Source: Nitrospirota bacterium
GTDB taxonomy: Bacteria; Nitrospirota; Nitrospiria; 2-01-FULL-66-17
Direction: 5' to 3'
Assembly: GCA_049325335.1 (NCBI GenBank)
Contig: JBMOMC010000043.1
Location: forward strand, 80,262-144,261
DNA length: 64,000 nt
In this document: piece by piece, positions 25,906-32,014 of the stretch
How the letters are laid out: each line of letters opens with the position of its first letter
Position numbering within the stretch: position 1 is the first letter of the stretch
Position numbers and translations under genes: made by a program
Notes under the pieces: generated by a model
The model's input: the letters and a program-made list of their open reading frames with translations, nothing else
The model's database searches: none
Told to the model about the DNA's origin: nothing

Positions 25906-26520
25906 ATGATGAAGTCCATAACTTGGATGGGTCTTATTTTCCTCGGATTGACTGCATGTGCGACGATGCGTGCGCAAACCATGACGGTTGCCACGTCCAG
26001 CGGCACGCCCGGCACCGGCCAACACGTCACTTTCAAAGGCGACGCCTTGGCGCTGGAAGGCATGGCGATTAAAGTCGGCGACACGCTGCCGTCCGCCGTG
26101 GTCACCGGCAATGACCTCAAGCCCGTGAACCTGGCCGAGGCCAAGGGCAAGGTCCGGATCATCAGCATCGTCCCCTCGATCGACACGCCCGTGTGCGAAG
26201 AGCAAACCCACGAACTGTCCGAGAAAAACGGCGGCCTCGATAAACAGGTCGAACTCATCACCGTAAGCATGGACCTGCCGTTCGCCCAGAAGCGTTTTGC
26301 CAAGGAAGCCAAGATCCACAACGTGACGTTCCTTTCCGACTACAAAGCCGGGGAATTCGGCAAGAACACCGGCCTGCTGATCCAACCCCTGCACCTCCTG
26401 GCCCGCACCGTGTTGGTGGTGGACAAGGACAATGTGATTCGCTACATGCAGGTCGTGCCGGAGATCACGAACCTGCCGGATATGCAGGCGGCGATGACGG
26501 TGACGAAGGGGCTGCTCTAA
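25906..26520 (+). CDS. tpx: Thiol peroxidase (Tpx family), putative lipoprotein
   Basis: VPSIDTPVC, SMDLPFAQKRF, LLAR.V.V.D motifs; lipobox LTA-C. Confidence 0.9.
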   Translation: MMKSITWMGLIFLGLTACATMRAQTMTVATSSGTPGTGQHVTFKGDALALEGMAIKVGDTLPSAVVTGNDLKPVNLAEAKGKVRIISIVPSIDTPVCEEQTHELSEKNGGLDKQVELITVSMDLPFAQKRFAKEAKIHNVTFLSDYKAGEFGKNTGLLIQPLHLLARTVLVVDKDNVIRYMQVVPEITNLPDMQAAMTVTKGLL

Positions 26521-26576
26521 AGATGATCGCAGGGCAGATGTTGGAGGTTTGCTTAACAACTGTCGCATGGCGGGAC

Positions 26577-26608
26577 TTGACAGACTCAATATATCAATAT
26601 ATATTGAT
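26577..26608 (+). promoter_or_regulatory. Sigma-70 promoter with overlapping palindromic operator (likely ArsR-family site)
   Basis: TTGACA (26577)-N17-TATATT (26600); perfect palindrome ATCAATATATATTGAT at 26593-26608 covers the -10. Confidence 0.8.
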
Positions 26609-26612
26609 CAAT

Positions 26613-26972
26613 ATGAAACACGGCGATCTCTTGGCGGCGCAAGTTGGGCTCTTTGCCGCGCTGGCGGACCCGACCCGGCTTCAGATTGTGAGCCTGTTGC
26701 AGGCAAAGGGCCCCATGCACGTGACCGAGATCTACGAGACCCTGGGCCGGCGGCAGAACCTTGTCTCCCACCACTTGAACTGCCTGAGGACGTGCGGCCT
26801 GGTCACGGTGGAGAAGCAGGGCCGGCTGGCCATTTACGGCTTGGCGCATCCCGAGATCGCGCGGATGCTGGAGTGGGCCGAGAAGCGGGTGCTGGACCAG
26901 GCGGAGCGCATCCTGTCGTGCCGGATCGTCGGCAAGCACCAGGGCCACGACCGCCCATCGAGAAAACGGTGA
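26613..26972 (+). CDS. ArsR/SmtB family metal-sensing repressor, CmtR-like
   Basis: FAALADPTRLQI; SHHLNCLRTCGLV CxxxC site plus a C-terminal Cys. Confidence 0.9.
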   Translation: MKHGDLLAAQVGLFAALADPTRLQIVSLLQAKGPMHVTEIYETLGRRQNLVSHHLNCLRTCGLVTVEKQGRLAIYGLAHPEIARMLEWAEKRVLDQAERILSCRIVGKHQGHDRPSRKR

Positions 26973-27226
26973 TGGCGAACGGGGACCGGCTGGTCAAGGC
27001 GGGCGCAATCGGTGCGATCATTGCGGCGCTCTGCTGTTTCACTCCGCTGCTGGTCATCCTGCTGGCTGCCGTTGGTCTGACCGCGTTCTCGGGCTACCTC
27101 GACGCTGTGCTGTTCTCCGCGCTCGCGATCTGCGTGGCGATCCTGATCTGCGGCCTGATCCTCCAGCACCGCGCCCGCGCGGCCTGCTGCCCTCAGGATC
27201 ACCGGCAGTCGGAAGGGCCTCGATGA
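26972..27226 (+). CDS. merF: Mercury transporter MerF
   Basis: AALCCFTPLLVILL…GYLD.VL; C-terminal CC; 2 TM segments. Confidence 0.88.
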   Translation: MANGDRLVKAGAIGAIIAALCCFTPLLVILLAAVGLTAFSGYLDAVLFSALAICVAILICGLILQHRARAACCPQDHRQSEGPR

Positions 27227-27576
27227 GCCGCGGCTGGACCGCCGGCGGCCTTCTGTCCGCCGCGCTGTCTTCGATCTGTTGCACAGGGCCGCTGCTCTTC
27301 TCGGTGCTGGGCGTGGGCGCCGGCGCCACGGGATTTCTGGGCGAATCGGCGCGGTTCGCCGCGGCCCTCGCGCCGTACCGGCTCTTCTTTATCGCGCTGG
27401 CGGTAGTCTTTCTGGCCCTGGGATTCCGCTCGGTCTATCGACAGCAACGGGCCTGCGCTCCCGGTTCCGGCTGCGCGCCGGCTCGGCTCAAACACACCAA
27501 AGCCTTGCTGTGGGTGGCTACGTTCATCATCGTGGCGTTCGCGCTCGCTCCCTTCTGGTTGGCTATCGGGTCTTGA
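27223..27576 (+). CDS. merT: Mercury transporter MerT
   Basis: SSICCTGPLL, LAPYR..FI, cytoplasmic C-x5-C loop, 3 TM segments. Confidence 0.9.
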   Translation: MSRGWTAGGLLSAALSSICCTGPLLFSVLGVGAGATGFLGESARFAAALAPYRLFFIALAVVFLALGFRSVYRQQRACAPGSGCAPARLKHTKALLWVATFIIVAFALAPFWLAIGS

Positions 27577-27595
27577 TCGTGAAAGGAGGCGTGTG

Positions 27596-27949
27596 ATGCG
27601 TGCAATTCAACAGACGGCGCATGCCGTGGTGATGCTCTTCGCCGTGGCCGCGGGATTGACGACCGTTCCCTCGCTCGCCTGGGCTGCTGACGCAGCCCCA
27701 AGCGAGCCGTCCACGCAGGTGACCCTTGAAGTGGACGGCATGGAGTGCCGGAGCTGCGTGAAGGACATCCGGAAGGCATTGCTGCGCGTGCCGGGCGTCT
27801 CGTCCGCGGATGTCCGATTCAAGGAGGGACGCGCGGTGGTGCGATACGATCCCCGGAAAGCCGGGGAACAGGATCTGGTGCGCGCAGTGGAGTCGGCGAG
27901 CAACGCGATATATACGTACCGGGCCAGGGTGCTGGCCCAGGGAGGCTGA
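27596..27949 (+). CDS. merP: Periplasmic HMA metal-binding protein, MerP-like
   Basis: Signal peptide AWA-A; GMECRSC HMA motif; position in the mer operon. Confidence 0.8.
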   Translation: MRAIQQTAHAVVMLFAVAAGLTTVPSLAWAADAAPSEPSTQVTLEVDGMECRSCVKDIRKALLRVPGVSSADVRFKEGRAVVRYDPRKAGEQDLVRAVESASNAIYTYRARVLAQGG

Positions 27950-27963
27950 TCGTGGCCCGGAAT

Positions 27964-28656
27964 ATGAGTTGGCAGGTGAATAGCATGGCCAGCCTGGCCA
28001 ACGAGGTGGCCAGCTGGTTTCCGAAGCTCTCCAACGAGGAACAGCAGCTCTCGATTCATCTCTATCGGCTGCTGGCCCAAGGCAGCCCGGTGGCGCCGGA
28101 ACAGCTCGCGGCGCGACTGGATCTGCCGCCGGAGCGGGTGCGGCAGACGCTCCTGGGGTGGCCCGGGGTCTTCTACGACGAGCGCGAACGCGTCATCGGC
28201 TACTGGGGCCTCGCGCTTCCCGAGATGGCCCATCGGTTTATCGTCAACGGCCGGACGCTCTATACCTGGTGCGCCTGGGACAGCCTCTTCCTTCCTGAGC
28301 TAATCGGGGAAACGGCTCGCGTGGAATCGACCTGCCCCGTGACCGGCCACGTGGTCCGGCTGGTGGTCTCCCCACAGCAGATCATTGAGACGGACCCCGT
28401 GGGTGCGGTGATGTCGTTTCTCACGCCGGAGGCGGCCCGGGTTCAAGAGGACGTGATCACCCATTTCTGCCACTTTGTTCATTTCTTTCGTTCGGACGAG
28501 GCTGGTCAGCAATGGGTATCCGAACACGAGGGGACCTTTCTGCTCTCAATGCCGGACGCGTTCACCCTGGCGCGACGGAAGAACGCGATTCGATATCCGG
28601 ATACCGGCTTGATCGCCGGGAACCTAAACCGAGGCGCGCATGTCCAAGATCGCTGA
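27964..28656 (+). CDS. merB: Organomercurial lyase (start uncertain)
   Basis: LYTWCAWDSL (catalytic Cys/Asp), STCPVTG, FCHFVHFF; N-terminal HTH. Confidence 0.9.
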   Translation: MSWQVNSMASLANEVASWFPKLSNEEQQLSIHLYRLLAQGSPVAPEQLAARLDLPPERVRQTLLGWPGVFYDERERVIGYWGLALPEMAHRFIVNGRTLYTWCAWDSLFLPELIGETARVESTCPVTGHVVRLVVSPQQIIETDPVGAVMSFLTPEAARVQEDVITHFCHFVHFFRSDEAGQQWVSEHEGTFLLSMPDAFTLARRKNAIRYPDTGLIAGNLNRGAHVQDR

Positions 28657-29014
28657 AACCCCTGAGGCGGAATCATCCCTCTTTGCGGAGATGCGAAGGC
28701 TCAGCCCGAAGGTCACGGGAGGCATCCTGCGGGCGCGGGAGGCCTCCTATGAAGACGGAGCCGTGGCCGGCAAGTACAAGCTGCTGACCGCGCTGGCCAT
28801 CTCGATCGCCATCCGGTGCGAGCCCTGTATCCGGGCCTACGTGAAATCGGCCGTGCAACGAGGGGCGACGAAAGACGAACTGATCGAATTTTTGAACGTC
28901 GCGATGACCATGCAGGGCTGCCCCGGCGAAGAGTGGGCGATCAAGGCGTATGCGGCCTACAAAGAGCTGACCGCGGGCAACGCCCACACGACCGACGGGA
29001 CGTCCTGCTGTTGA
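28640..29014 (+). CDS. Carboxymuconolactone decarboxylase/AhpD family protein with CxxC and terminal Cys-Cys
   Basis: KYK.L.ALAISIAIRCEPCI…GAT..E..E…A..MQGCP; ends DGTSCC. Confidence 0.85.
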   Translation: MSKIAETPEAESSLFAEMRRLSPKVTGGILRAREASYEDGAVAGKYKLLTALAISIAIRCEPCIRAYVKSAVQRGATKDELIEFLNVAMTMQGCPGEEWAIKAYAAYKELTAGNAHTTDGTSCC

Positions 29015-29056
29015 GGTGACCCCAGGACCCGATAGCGGACCCGATAGGGAGCCGAT

Positions 29057-30140
29057 AGGGGACGTTCCTAAGTAATTAAGTAATTTTTTCTTTACACGGT
29101 CTTGGTGAACATGTTATAGCGTCGGCCATGCCACGCGGGCCGCGTCTCGATGCTCCGGGAGTGGTGCACCATGTGATGGCGCGGGGCATTGAGCAAGGCA
29201 ACATTTTCCGGAGCGACGAGGATCGCAGTGATTTTGTCCGGCGACTGGCCCGTCTGCTGCCGGACACTCAGACCACGTGTTTGGCGTGGTGCCTCCTCTC
29301 CAACCATCTCCATTTAGTCCTGCGCTCAGGACCCCAGGGCTTGGCGCACCTGATGCGCCGGCTATTGACTGGGTACGCGGGCGCGTTTAATCGCCGCTAC
29401 GGCCGCGCGGGACATCTCTTTCAGAACCGCTATCGCTCCCTTATCTGCGAGGAAGATCTCTACCTGCTGGTATTGGTGCGGTATGTCCATTTGAATCCCA
29501 TACGCGCAGGCCTTGTGCTGAGCGTCAAGGCATTGGCCGACTACCCGTGGTGCGGGCACGGCGCGTTGGTGGGAAGAGGCCGTCACGCGTGGCAGGAGAC
29601 TGCGGAGGTTCTGGAGCGATTTGGTCAGGAGGCTGAGCAGGCGGGTCGGGCCTATGTCAGCTTTGTCGCGGAGGGGTTGGAGCAGGAGCAAACCCCGGAA
29701 CGGCGCACTGGAGCGAGCGGCCGAGAACTTACGCGCGTGATCAAGGAAGCGACAGCTCGCTCGACTGATGGGGTGGGCTCAACGACGATCTTGGGAAGTC
29801 CAGAGTTTACGGTGAACCTCCGTTCACAGCTAAAACAGGCCACTAGGCGAGAGTCGGTCGACTGTCAGACCGTGGTGGACGAGGTGTGCCGCGTGTTAGG
29901 GCTCTCGCCGAAGGCTCTGGCATCGCGGCGCCGCACGCGGCCGCTCTCCAATGGACGCGCCGTGGTTGCGTACGTGGCACGCACGCGGTATCACATCTCG
30001 TGCGCAGACCTTGCCGACGCACTGGGCACGAGCGCGCCCGCCATCACATTGGCCGAGCGTCGAGGCGCCAGACTGGTGATGCAACGGATAGACTTGAGAA
30101 CAGGTCTCAAAAATTACTTAATTAGTTAGGAACGTCCCCT
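29057..30140 (+). mobile_element. Y1/HUH transposase-like element bounded by a 32-bp inverted repeat
   Basis: Left AGGGGACGTTCCTAAGTAATTAAGTAATTTTT (29057-29088) and right reverse complement (30109-30140) differ by 1 mismatch. Confidence 0.8.
29128..30129 (+). CDS. Y1 (IS200/RAYT-like) HUH transposase with C-terminal DnaA-like HTH
   Basis: HHVMARG, NHLHL (HUH), GHLFQNRYRS, RYVHLNP, YPW; C-terminal R…S.GR.V.AY…A..LG pattern. Confidence 0.9.
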   Translation: MPRGPRLDAPGVVHHVMARGIEQGNIFRSDEDRSDFVRRLARLLPDTQTTCLAWCLLSNHLHLVLRSGPQGLAHLMRRLLTGYAGAFNRRYGRAGHLFQNRYRSLICEEDLYLLVLVRYVHLNPIRAGLVLSVKALADYPWCGHGALVGRGRHAWQETAEVLERFGQEAEQAGRAYVSFVAEGLEQEQTPERRTGASGRELTRVIKEATARSTDGVGSTTILGSPEFTVNLRSQLKQATRRESVDCQTVVDEVCRVLGLSPKALASRRRTRPLSNGRAVVAYVARTRYHISCADLADALGTSAPAITLAERRGARLVMQRIDLRTGLKNYLIS

Positions 30141-30170
30141 TTGTGTGTGTGGGGGGGGCAGGGGGTTGTA

Positions 30171-30674
30171 GTGTCCAAGGTTGGGTTCGACAGCCCTTTA
30201 CTTGATAAGACGTACGCCGCGTTCCTTGGCGGTCCGGTGGCGATCAATGTGGCGTCGTGCGACGCGAAGTGTATGCCATCGGTCGCTCGCGGGTATGGTT
30301 GCCGGATCTCCAGTGACCGGCGGCGCGTCACGGTCTTTCTCTCGGTGTCTCAGGCCTCGCCGTTGCTGCGTGATCTGCGTGCGGGTCGACCGGTTGCGGT
30401 TGTGTTCACTCGGCCCAAGACGCACCAGACTATTCAACTCAAAGGCACCGACGCCAAGGTCGCGCCGCTGGGCCGTGGGGATCGCGCGATCATGACCGCG
30501 TATGCCGAGGCGTTCGCGGTAGAAGTCGGCGCGCTTGGGTTCACGGACTGCTTTTCGTCTGCGATCGTGTCCGGTACAAGCGAAGCGGCGGTGGGGGTGA
30601 CGTTTACCCCCACCGCCGCGTTCGTGCAGACCCCGGGGCCGACCGCGGGTCAGCGTTTGGAGCCCAAGCCGTGA
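30171..30674 (+). CDS. Pyridoxamine 5'-phosphate oxidase-like (split-barrel) protein
   Basis: VAS.D…P.VARG.G, AVVFT.P.TH.TIQLKG, QTPGP.AG. Confidence 0.7.
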   Translation: MSKVGFDSPLLDKTYAAFLGGPVAINVASCDAKCMPSVARGYGCRISSDRRRVTVFLSVSQASPLLRDLRAGRPVAVVFTRPKTHQTIQLKGTDAKVAPLGRGDRAIMTAYAEAFAVEVGALGFTDCFSSAIVSGTSEAAVGVTFTPTAAFVQTPGPTAGQRLEPKP

Positions 30675-32014
30675 TCGCGCGGTTGGGGGATCTGCGCAAC
30701 TGCTTTGAGGGCGCGGTGCCGTCGGCGTTCGCCACGTGTTCCAAGGATGGCACGCCGAACGTGGCGTATCTGTCGCAGGTGCATTATGTGGACGGCGACC
30801 ACGTGGCGTTGACGTATCAGTTTTTCAACACCACACGCAAGAACATCTTGGCCAACCGGCGCGCGACCGTGCAGGTGGTGGACCCGGACACGGCCGCCCA
30901 CTACCGCCTGCACCTCGAGTACTTGCGCACCGAAACCGAGGGGCCGTTGTTCGAGAACATGAAGGCCAAGCTCGCCGGCATTGCCTCGCACACCGGCATG
31001 AGCAAGGTGTTCCGGTTGCTTGGTTCGGACATCTACAAGGTGCTGAAGATCGACCACGTGTTTGGCGAACCCGCACTCGATGCCTCGCGGAGCCAATGTC
31101 TGCTCTCGTCCCTTCGGACCTGTCTGACGGAGGTGGGCCGGTGCGGGGACCTGGCGCGGCTGTTCGACGAGGCGCTGGAAGCGCTCGAACGGAATTTCGA
31201 CATTCGGCACGTGATGCTGCTTATACATGACGAGCGCCGGAACCGGCTGTATACCGTGGCCACGCGCGGTTATCAGCAATCAGGCGTGGGATCGGAGATT
31301 TGCGTGGGCGAAGGCATTATCGGCGTGGCCGCGCGCGAGCGCACGCCGATCCGCATCGGGTATGTGGCGAACGAATACCTGTACGGCCGCGTGGCGCGCG
31401 AGGGGTTTGCCCAGAGTGGCGGGGTGGATGCGCTTGAAACCGAAATTCCCTTCCCCGGTTTGCGCAATTCGAGCAGTCAACTCGCCGTGCCGTTGACGCG
31501 CGACACGCGTCTGCTGGGTGTGCTCTACATGGAAAGCCCGCAGGAGCGGCGGTTCACCTATGAGGACGAGGACGCATTGGCGGTGCTGGCAAGCCAATTG
31601 GCCTTGTTGATCGAGGTCTTGTCCGAGGCTCCCGAGCCGCAGGACGAACCCGCGATGGCTGCGACGCCCGCGCCGGTGCAAGGCGCACCGGTGGCGATCC
31701 AGCATTTTGCCGCGGACCACAGCGTGTTCATCGACAATGAATACCTTATTAAAGGCGTTGCCGGTGCGATCCTGCGTAAACTGGTGGGTGACTACGTTGA
31801 AGCCGGCAGAACCGAGTTCACCAACCGCGAGCTGCGGCTCGATTGCACGCTGGGGCTGCCGGACATCACGGACAATCTGGAGGCCCGGCTGATTCTCCTA
31901 CAACGTCGGCTGGCCGAGCATTGCAAGTTCCTGGGTCTTGAAAAGACCGGGCGCGGCCGCTTCCGCCTGAACGTGTCACGGCCCCTGCGGCTCACGGACG
32001 CGCCCGGTCGCTGA
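30671..32014 (+). CDS. PNPOx-like + GAF + putative winged-helix regulator
   Basis: ATCS.DG.PNV.YLSQV…QFFN.TR.NI; GAF (GEGIIG…LAVPL…LGVLY.ES); C-terminal NLEARL.LL.RRL…GRGRF. Confidence 0.78.
   Translation: MIARLGDLRNCFEGAVPSAFATCSKDGTPNVAYLSQVHYVDGDHVALTYQFFNTTRKNILANRRATVQVVDPDTAAHYRLHLEYLRTETEGPLFENMKAKLAGIASHTGMSKVFRLLGSDIYKVLKIDHVFGEPALDASRSQCLLSSLRTCLTEVGRCGDLARLFDEALEALERNFDIRHVMLLIHDERRNRLYTVATRGYQQSGVGSEICVGEGIIGVAARERTPIRIGYVANEYLYGRVAREGFAQSGGVDALETEIPFPGLRNSSSQLAVPLTRDTRLLGVLYMESPQERRFTYEDEDALAVLASQLALLIEVLSEAPEPQDEPAMAATPAPVQGAPVAIQHFAADHSVFIDNEYLIKGVAGAILRKLVGDYVEAGRTEFTNRELRLDCTLGLPDITDNLEARLILLQRRLAEHCKFLGLEKTGRGRFRLNVSRPLRLTDAPGR

Follow-up and report, generated by a model that had tools for sequence, protein, structure and literature searches.

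A likely mer accessory gene for a five-cysteine AhpD-fold protein closes a Nitrospirota organomercurial cassette without merA

Introduction

What becomes of mercury in a cassette that carries genes for Hg(II) importers and an organomercurial lyase and none for the reductase MerA? This question is raised by a 64,000-nucleotide stretch of a Nitrospirota bacterium (assembly GCA_049325335.1, contig JBMOMC010000043.1), termed here the window, in which the genes arsR-merF-merT-merP-merB-cmd (26613-29014, + strand) end in cmd, encoding a small protein of the CMD family. The literature already treats MerB without MerA as a puzzle: the accessible text of Christakis et al. 2021 (PMC8261052) describes numerous MerB-only genomes with no activity reported and proposes thiol sequestration as one untested way out, the available part of PMC12874090 places Nitrospirae among the merB-only lineages, and that of PMC9948709 gives 91 of 93 merB-containing metagenome-assembled genomes as having merA by hidden Markov model (HMM). 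The merA-less state of one genome is thus in itself not new; what is new is an unrecognised, widely conserved accessory gene in a merA-less mer cassette. We slightly favour the reading that this cassette, from which merA was likely lost, ends in a five-Cys AhpD-fold protein that would buffer or carry Hg(II) in the cytoplasm and would not be a reductase, a reading drawn from sequence comparison.

Results

A conserved five-cysteine clade within the CMD family

The cmd gene (28640-29014, + strand) overlaps merB by 17 nt and matches the Pfam CMD profile (PF02627) with a score of 55.2 against a cut-off of 23. Its 124-residue product has cysteines at C60 and C63 (CEPC), C94 (GCPG) and C123/C124 (a TSCC end), exactly the arrangement reported in the preliminary description of this DNA. 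A Pfam scan of the protein returned PF02627 as the sole domain, with no FAD/NADPH or other cofactor-binding domain and no MerA CxxxxC. Conservation was assessed in two sets of 120 homologues, the first being the best 120 of 1165. CEPC was present in 116/120 and 117/120, the third Cys in 120/120 and 117/120 (as GCPG in 120/120 of the first set), and a tail Cys-Cys behind a hypervariable linker in 119/120 and 120/120, lying within the last 30 residues in 119/120 of the first set. The terminal pair that the preliminary description had singled out is hence a conserved trait. The predicted model shows a helical fold whose nearest structures are Lpg0406 (5DIK), TM1620 and RclX, and a tail with pLDDT <50; this flexible C-terminal Cys-Cys resembles the tail of MerA, a likeness that is one of resemblance only.

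The residues of the AhpD relay, given in the accessible part of PMC3141380 as Glu118, Cys130, His132, Cys133 and His137, are retained only in their cysteines, as the equivalents of Glu118, His132 and His137 are Leu48, Pro62 and Tyr67 in the window protein. The His137 position is Tyr in 120/120 Nitrospirota-type and 120/120 proteobacterial-type proteins (240/240) and the Glu118 position is never Glu in these 240 clade proteins, whereas generic AhpD matches have the His in 71/88 and the Glu in 66/88. As judged from these positions, the AhpD proton relay is broken in the five-Cys clade. The TIGR00778 score of the window protein, 22.5, lies under the cut-off of 27.8. A quick IQ-TREE of 133 rows, built from every eighth match of two homologue searches together with profile-search matches of 100-170 aa with a usable CxxC, grouped the window protein with the Nitrospirota and proteobacterial ones in a single clade of 57 rows (SH-aLRT 100). 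A selenoprotein variant was considered and rejected, the single internal TGA match (locus L014; L and G numbers denote our loci and genomes) lying upstream of the matched core. The profile search also yielded secreted-looking proteins with tandem CMD/AhpD repeats of up to six stretches (P0135, P0151, P0152).

cmd is a regular member of mer clusters

We mapped 117 loci of the cmd clade (37 genome, 80 metagenome), corresponding to 83 non-redundant loci at 95% identity. Upstream sequence of 600 bp or more is available for 69 of the non-redundant loci; every one of these has merT/P/F, merA, merB or a metal regulator no more than 2 kb away, and 55/69 have a transporter or HMA gene (merT, merP or merF). 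Surveying the synteny that the preliminary description had pointed to in one operon, we find cmd to be a regular mer-cluster member and not a chance neighbour. Named records in the clade include Nitrospirota, Calditrichaceae, Zixiibacteriota, Eisenbacteria, Latescibacterota and KSB1, and a proteobacterial branch, 43-47% identical, occurs as merR-merT-merP-cmd on Cupriavidus metallidurans pMOL30, Methylocapsa pRX1 and a Ralstonia megaplasmid. None of these three plasmid modules has merA in the examined stretch. Co-directional adjacent MerR proteins carry the three-Cys MerR pattern, and a strict TTGAC..GTA..TAC dyad promoter was found in 37/59 cases versus 28/2340 background windows, the misses inspected being near-matches. 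We take this dyad to be akin to the merOP of Tn21/Tn501.

A merA gene starts at most 120 bp from cmd in 11/83 non-redundant loci, one of these (L038) being a 58-aa stub. Among the long loci, 15/37 have merA within 3.5 kb and 22/37 have none. Seven of the eight neighbouring reductases scanned exceed the MerA cut-off (TIGR02053), that of L034 failing it. The lyase gene merB was found in 4/83 non-redundant loci, three of them with merA and the exception, L060 in genome G070, lacking MerA genome-wide.

Several other features recur in these clusters. A minimal module with merR directly before cmd is present in 22/117 loci (L041, L044, L047, L050 and others); such modules are often divergent from arsM-arsR-arsS arsenosugar-type genes, followed by TolC/CusB/CusA-like genes. 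A Nitrospirota protein of about 175 aa with a hydrophobic N-terminus (for instance L050:3033-3572) follows cmd or merA in 56/117 loci and lies at most 200 bp from cmd in 40/117; it has no Pfam/NCBIfam match, Atlas features suggest that it is DsrE-like, and its gene may represent another unnamed accessory of mer clusters. Many Nitrospirota mer clusters also have a small thioredoxin-like protein (CxxC, CPSC and a CC pair; L054:537-815) encoded between merR and merT/merF, which is present as well in the cmd-less mer cluster of G003.

CMD co-occurs with MerA in a genome census

The census covered 201 Nitrospirota genomes of at least 90% completeness, sampled without regard to the feature, with seven MerA candidates scored per genome. 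The CMD clade was detected in 20/201 (2 partial) and MerA in 15/201, with MerA present in 5/20 CMD-positive and 10/181 CMD-negative genomes. Within a Nitrospiraceae-like family, f3, MerA occurs in 5/15 CMD-positive and 0/27 CMD-negative genomes (Fisher p=0.004, a value overstated because kin are not independent). MerB, counted by match strength and not by catalytic residues, was found in 12 genomes as a strong match and in 17 at E<=1e-10; among the ten with strong MerB and without MerA, the window's own genome (G000) is the only one with CMD. In a separate group of 37 genomes, selected for their CMD loci and in many cases fragmented, MerA is present in 16. From these patterns of CMD, MerA and MerB across genomes, we read CMD as an accessory protein that accompanies MerA and is often retained after MerA is gone, not as a general substitute. 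As a side observation, MerB-like matches with one or two in-frame TGA codons occur in Nitrospirota genomes (L179, L182-L184, L186) and are possibly SaoL-like selenoproteins.

merA is missing from the assembled genome

The genome containing the window is 3.25 Mb in size, 99% complete and in 45 contigs, of which all but 1732 bases were open to the search. No flavin disulfide reductase was matched anywhere within the window, as stated in the preliminary description, which had left room for merA elsewhere in the genome. The genome-wide search found none in this assembly: 0/8 matches reached the MerA HMM cut-off (best 388.9 versus 454.45 bits), the best being a PRK06370-type oxidoreductase without a Cys-Cys tail. 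Searching the assembly by tblastn with MerA from two relatives gave only matches of at most 33% identity and short non-significant ones, and the C-terminal 60 aa of MerA used alone as query returned no MerA-like fragment. A contig from the likely source run covers merT to the repeat at 100% and is continuous across the junction between cmd and the neighbouring Y1 element, which does not amount to independent support. An HgcA search of the same genome gave 0/1.

The gene set has its closest counterpart in G004 of the same family, which has the same six genes in the same order (L029; merB 85% and cmd 76% identical), followed after cmd by an HD-GYP gene, a multiheme cytochrome gene and, 2.2 kb downstream, a true merA (545 bits). 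Because G004 combines the six genes with a downstream merA, the window cassette likely represents a shortened copy of an operon with merA. The 58-aa stub directly after cmd in L038 was likewise counted in favour of merA loss. Together, these data indicate that the mer cassette of the window is of the broad-spectrum kind and that its merA is missing from the assembled genome, likely through loss. The HD-GYP protein encoded between cmd and merA in L029 (8405-10541, with the multiheme cytochrome c) has an N-terminal Cys cluster.

Cassette genes and control region

The six open reading frames are co-directional, abut or overlap, and are all intact with their Cys motifs. The first, arsR (26613-26972, +), encodes a repressor of the ArsR/SmtB family that contains CxxxC and a further, C-terminal Cys (NF033788, 87.4 bits versus a cut-off of 55) and whose orthologues, 44-46% identical, head the operon in L029-L033. 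It is followed by merF (26972-27226, +; NF033565, 71.2 versus 50), with two Cys-Cys pairs, and merT (27223-27576, +; Pfam MerT, 59.9 versus 32.9), with Cys-Cys within the first helix and a CxxxxxC loop. The MerP-like HMA protein (27593/27596-27949, +) passes Pfam HMA, reaches 52.3 for TIGR02052 MerP, under the cut-off of 92.55, and has a GMECRSC motif and a signal-peptide-like N-terminus. The organomercurial lyase gene merB (27964-28656, +) scores 194.5 versus 193 for PRK13239 and 180.9 for NF033555, under 200. Its catalytic Cys/Asp/Cys are intact, with C103/D106/C124/C169 at the positions of C96/D99/C117/C159 in R831b, the residues listed as defining canonical MerB in the available part of PMC12874090 (Cys96, Asp99, Cys117, Cys159). 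The tightly coupled gene order of the preliminary description holds, and profiles support all six frames, with the MerP-like protein and MerT falling under the equivalog cut-offs.

A sigma70-like promoter, TTGACA-17-TATATT (26577-26605, +; 11/12 match, 2 found versus 0.3 expected), is overlapped by a perfect 16-bp palindrome, ATCAATATATATTGAT (26593-26608), which is likely the ArsR operator. The arsR start codon lies 7 nt past the -10 box and the transcript is likely leaderless. ATATCAA...TTGATAT-like dyads lie upstream in 5/5 arsR-led homologous operons inspected. ArsR-type mer repressors are known from Streptomyces and Sulfolobus. Codon GC3 of the cassette (0.77-0.88) equals that of the flanks and therefore gives no donor signal. 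In sequencing run X2, matching pieces cover about 26570 to 29025 without merF, runs X2-X4 contributing small shares and no RNA run being listed with this DNA, and a scan of viral contigs gave one weak 25-aa match.

Site history and neighbouring genes

On the left, tpx (thiol peroxidase; 25906-26520, +) marks the conserved backbone. Outside the cassette on the right, at 29058-30139 (+), lies a RAYT-type Y1 transposase (frame 29128-30129) between inverted REP-like ends, in a stretch described over 29021-30139. Sister genome G001, of the same genus, has this RAYT element too, flanked by inverted repeats, 90% identical at the aa level and 32 bp past tpx, with no mer genes; in G002, G003 and G004 neither the element nor the cassette adjoins tpx. 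On the simplest reading the cassette entered beside a pre-existing RAYT element; alternatively, it may have been lost in G001. Displacement of merA by the Y1 element, suggested in the preliminary description, is unlikely because G001 shares the element at the same site without the cassette, while a deletion beside the element may have been a route of loss. The transposase has a DnaA_C-like helix-turn-helix; the genome has 10 copies of the 12-mer REP-like end, of which two pairs enclose just ~96 bp (MITE-like), and three tandem CCGATAG units precede the left end of the window's element and of no other copy. Further right, at 30141-32014, is a pair of pyridoxamine-oxidase-like frames, the second fused to a GAF domain, which is syntenic in G003.

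Discussion

What, then, could cmd do in this setting? We favour metal handling as the likely role of the protein because it has lost the relay, its core has acquired a third Cys and its end a flexible arm with Cys-Cys, and its gene has a near-constant position after Hg importers. In the mechanism we propose, ArsR would leave its palindromic operator on arrival of the metal, the MerP-like protein, MerT and MerF would import Hg(II), and MerB would cleave organomercurials. The flexible Cys-Cys tail of CMD would then catch Hg(II) and pass the ion to the site formed by CxxC and the third Cys. Where MerA is present, CMD would hold the ion and pass it on; where it is absent, as in the window, protection by CMD would be stoichiometric and limited by capacity. 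A bolder version, which we put forward only tentatively and from sequence patterns, is that the five-Cys clade represents a new mer gene for an oligomeric Hg(II) sink with a MerA-like Cys-Cys arm, taking Hg from MerT, MerF or MerB and giving reductase-independent sequestration resistance (merR/arsR-T-P-[B]-cmd) in Nitrospirota and Proteobacteria, as one answer to MerB without MerA.

Several observations weigh against a dedicated role in Hg(II) buffering. Four distant Nitrospirota homologues have no merT/F neighbours, one of these four being flanked by a MerR-type regulator and an HMA P-type ATPase, while a Legionella plasmid homologue and a partial Paraburkholderia match have no mer neighbours. 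In Nitrospira, arsM/arsS and genes for CusA-like efflux often lie right next to the modules, so that the metal may not be Hg alone. Operons with merA also occur without cmd (G003, and 10/15 MerA-positive census genomes); since merA operons work without it, cmd is not essential. In addition, the accessible part of the C. metallidurans CH34 proteome study PMC11647595 contains no products of the pMOL30 mer1 locus. Weaker Vibrio and Aeromonas matches, which may lie outside the clade, had no mer neighbours.

Among other functions, CMD might be a thiol-disulfide redox or repair enzyme like AhpD, recruited as damage control to re-reduce protein thiols or strip Hg from them with dihydrolipoamide electrons. 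The AhpD fold with its CxxC and its nearest structures (Lpg0406, TM1620, RclX) speak for this, as do the protection by RclX against thiol-reactive oxidants described in the available part of PMC7950407 and the recurrence of thioredoxin-like and DsrE-like genes in the same clusters. However, the protein has lost three of the five relay residues, with Tyr invariant at the His137 position, and the extra Cys and flexible CC tail are more like metal ligands, so we regard such an enzyme as unlikely. We think it distinctly unlikely that the cassette is a decaying remnant or a general module for soft-metal stress (Cd, Cu, Ag, As) with a CMD that is not Hg-specific. The six intact frames with their Cys motifs, MerF and MerB scores above curated cut-offs and the MerR-type regulators and operators are at odds with it, although serial gene loss reduces modules down to merR-cmd-DsrE-like among the 22/117 loci in which merR immediately precedes cmd, a few homologues have a P-type ATPase nearby or non-mer surroundings, and MerT and MerP stay under their equivalog cut-offs.

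The remaining alternatives concern MerA itself. It could be present in unassembled sequence or in the 1732 bases outside the search, which would make the operon an ordinary split broad-spectrum system and would be compatible with Hg(II) buffering by CMD. Genome G233 has merA ~18 kb away from its merB-cmd cluster, the same-genus G003 carries three merA, and our assembly is in 45 contigs; given its 99% completeness, the lack of any MerA-like fragment even with the C-terminal query and the unbroken cmd-to-Y1 junction in the contigs of the likely source run (not independent), we consider a hidden merA improbable. The preliminary description went further and offered CMD as a non-MerA acceptor, sequestering protein or reductase. 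Its observations stand, namely a cassette without merA, a conserved terminal CC and a cmd gene that is a regular mer member. It is very improbable that CMD stands in for MerA, allowing MerB to work alone by serving as terminal acceptor or as an Hg(II) reductase without flavin. This idea fails its test because homologous operons carry merA right after cmd (the 11/83 loci above); moreover, CMD and MerA co-occur and are not mutually exclusive (f3, with the caveat on kinship), CMD is absent from 9/10 MerB-positive, MerA-negative genomes, and the protein has no cofactor-binding domain. In its favour are the 15/20 CMD-positive Nitrospirota genomes without MerA above cut-off, the 22/37 long loci with no merA within 3.5 kb, the proteobacterial merRTP-cmd modules without adjacent merA, and the one other merB and cmd locus (L060/G070) that is MerA-free genome-wide.

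A buffering or carrier role for an accessory CMD protein would have consequences beyond this genome. Few resistance systems have been studied as thoroughly as the mer operons, so an unnamed member that is conserved across several phyla and defined by its motifs would be a real addition. In the literature searched, which lacked most subscription papers, cmd is not named as a mer gene, and within that literature it is likely an undescribed mer accessory gene. If CMD buffers Hg(II), it would offer a testable route for part of the MerB-without-MerA puzzle (PMC8261052), and surveys based on merA only would overlook part of how nitrifier and groundwater communities handle mercury. A copy in the model strain C. 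metallidurans CH34, Rmet_5993, makes the proposal easy to test.

That copy, annotated 'ahpD' on pMOL30, belongs to the same clade, is 44.8% identical over its full length, has the five Cys and follows merP without an adjacent merA; unlike the window, its locus (Rmet_5990-5992) lacks both merB and merF, and in CH34 merA lies elsewhere. In the accessible part of PMC2864759 the table entry for the pMOL30 cluster reads merRTΔP and leaves out the ahpD gene, whereas the available supplement of PMC9045368 has Rmet_5993 ahpD as transcribed and in a predicted operon with merP (Op1826r_2; NPKM 52, non-challenging conditions). The supplements of PMC11647585 (in part) and PMC7563307 contain no rows with metal-induction data for Rmet_5993, and other supplements may bear on Hg induction. 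In the accessible text of PMC6505155 (SCT), 'ahpD' occurs once, for a gene that may or may not be of the five-Cys clade.

Compared with AhpD-like CMD proteins (Lpg0406 5DIK, TM1620, RclX, Mtb AhpD), the window protein shares the six-helix-type fold and CxxC at ~27-32% identity, and differs by Leu/Pro/Tyr in place of Glu118/His132/His137, by GCPG in place of GGGP and by the added C-terminal Cys-Cys tail. With the MerB-without-MerA genomes in the accessible parts of PMC8261052 and PMC12874090, the window shares merB without merA and adds to them a specific candidate gene in the operon, one that fits just 1/10 such Nitrospirota genomes sampled. With broad-spectrum mer operons it has in common MerF, MerT, the MerP-like protein and MerB with intact motifs, and relatives' versions include true MerA; the cassette stands apart from these operons in having no merA in the assembly, a regulator of the ArsR and not the MerR family, and an extra, conserved cmd.

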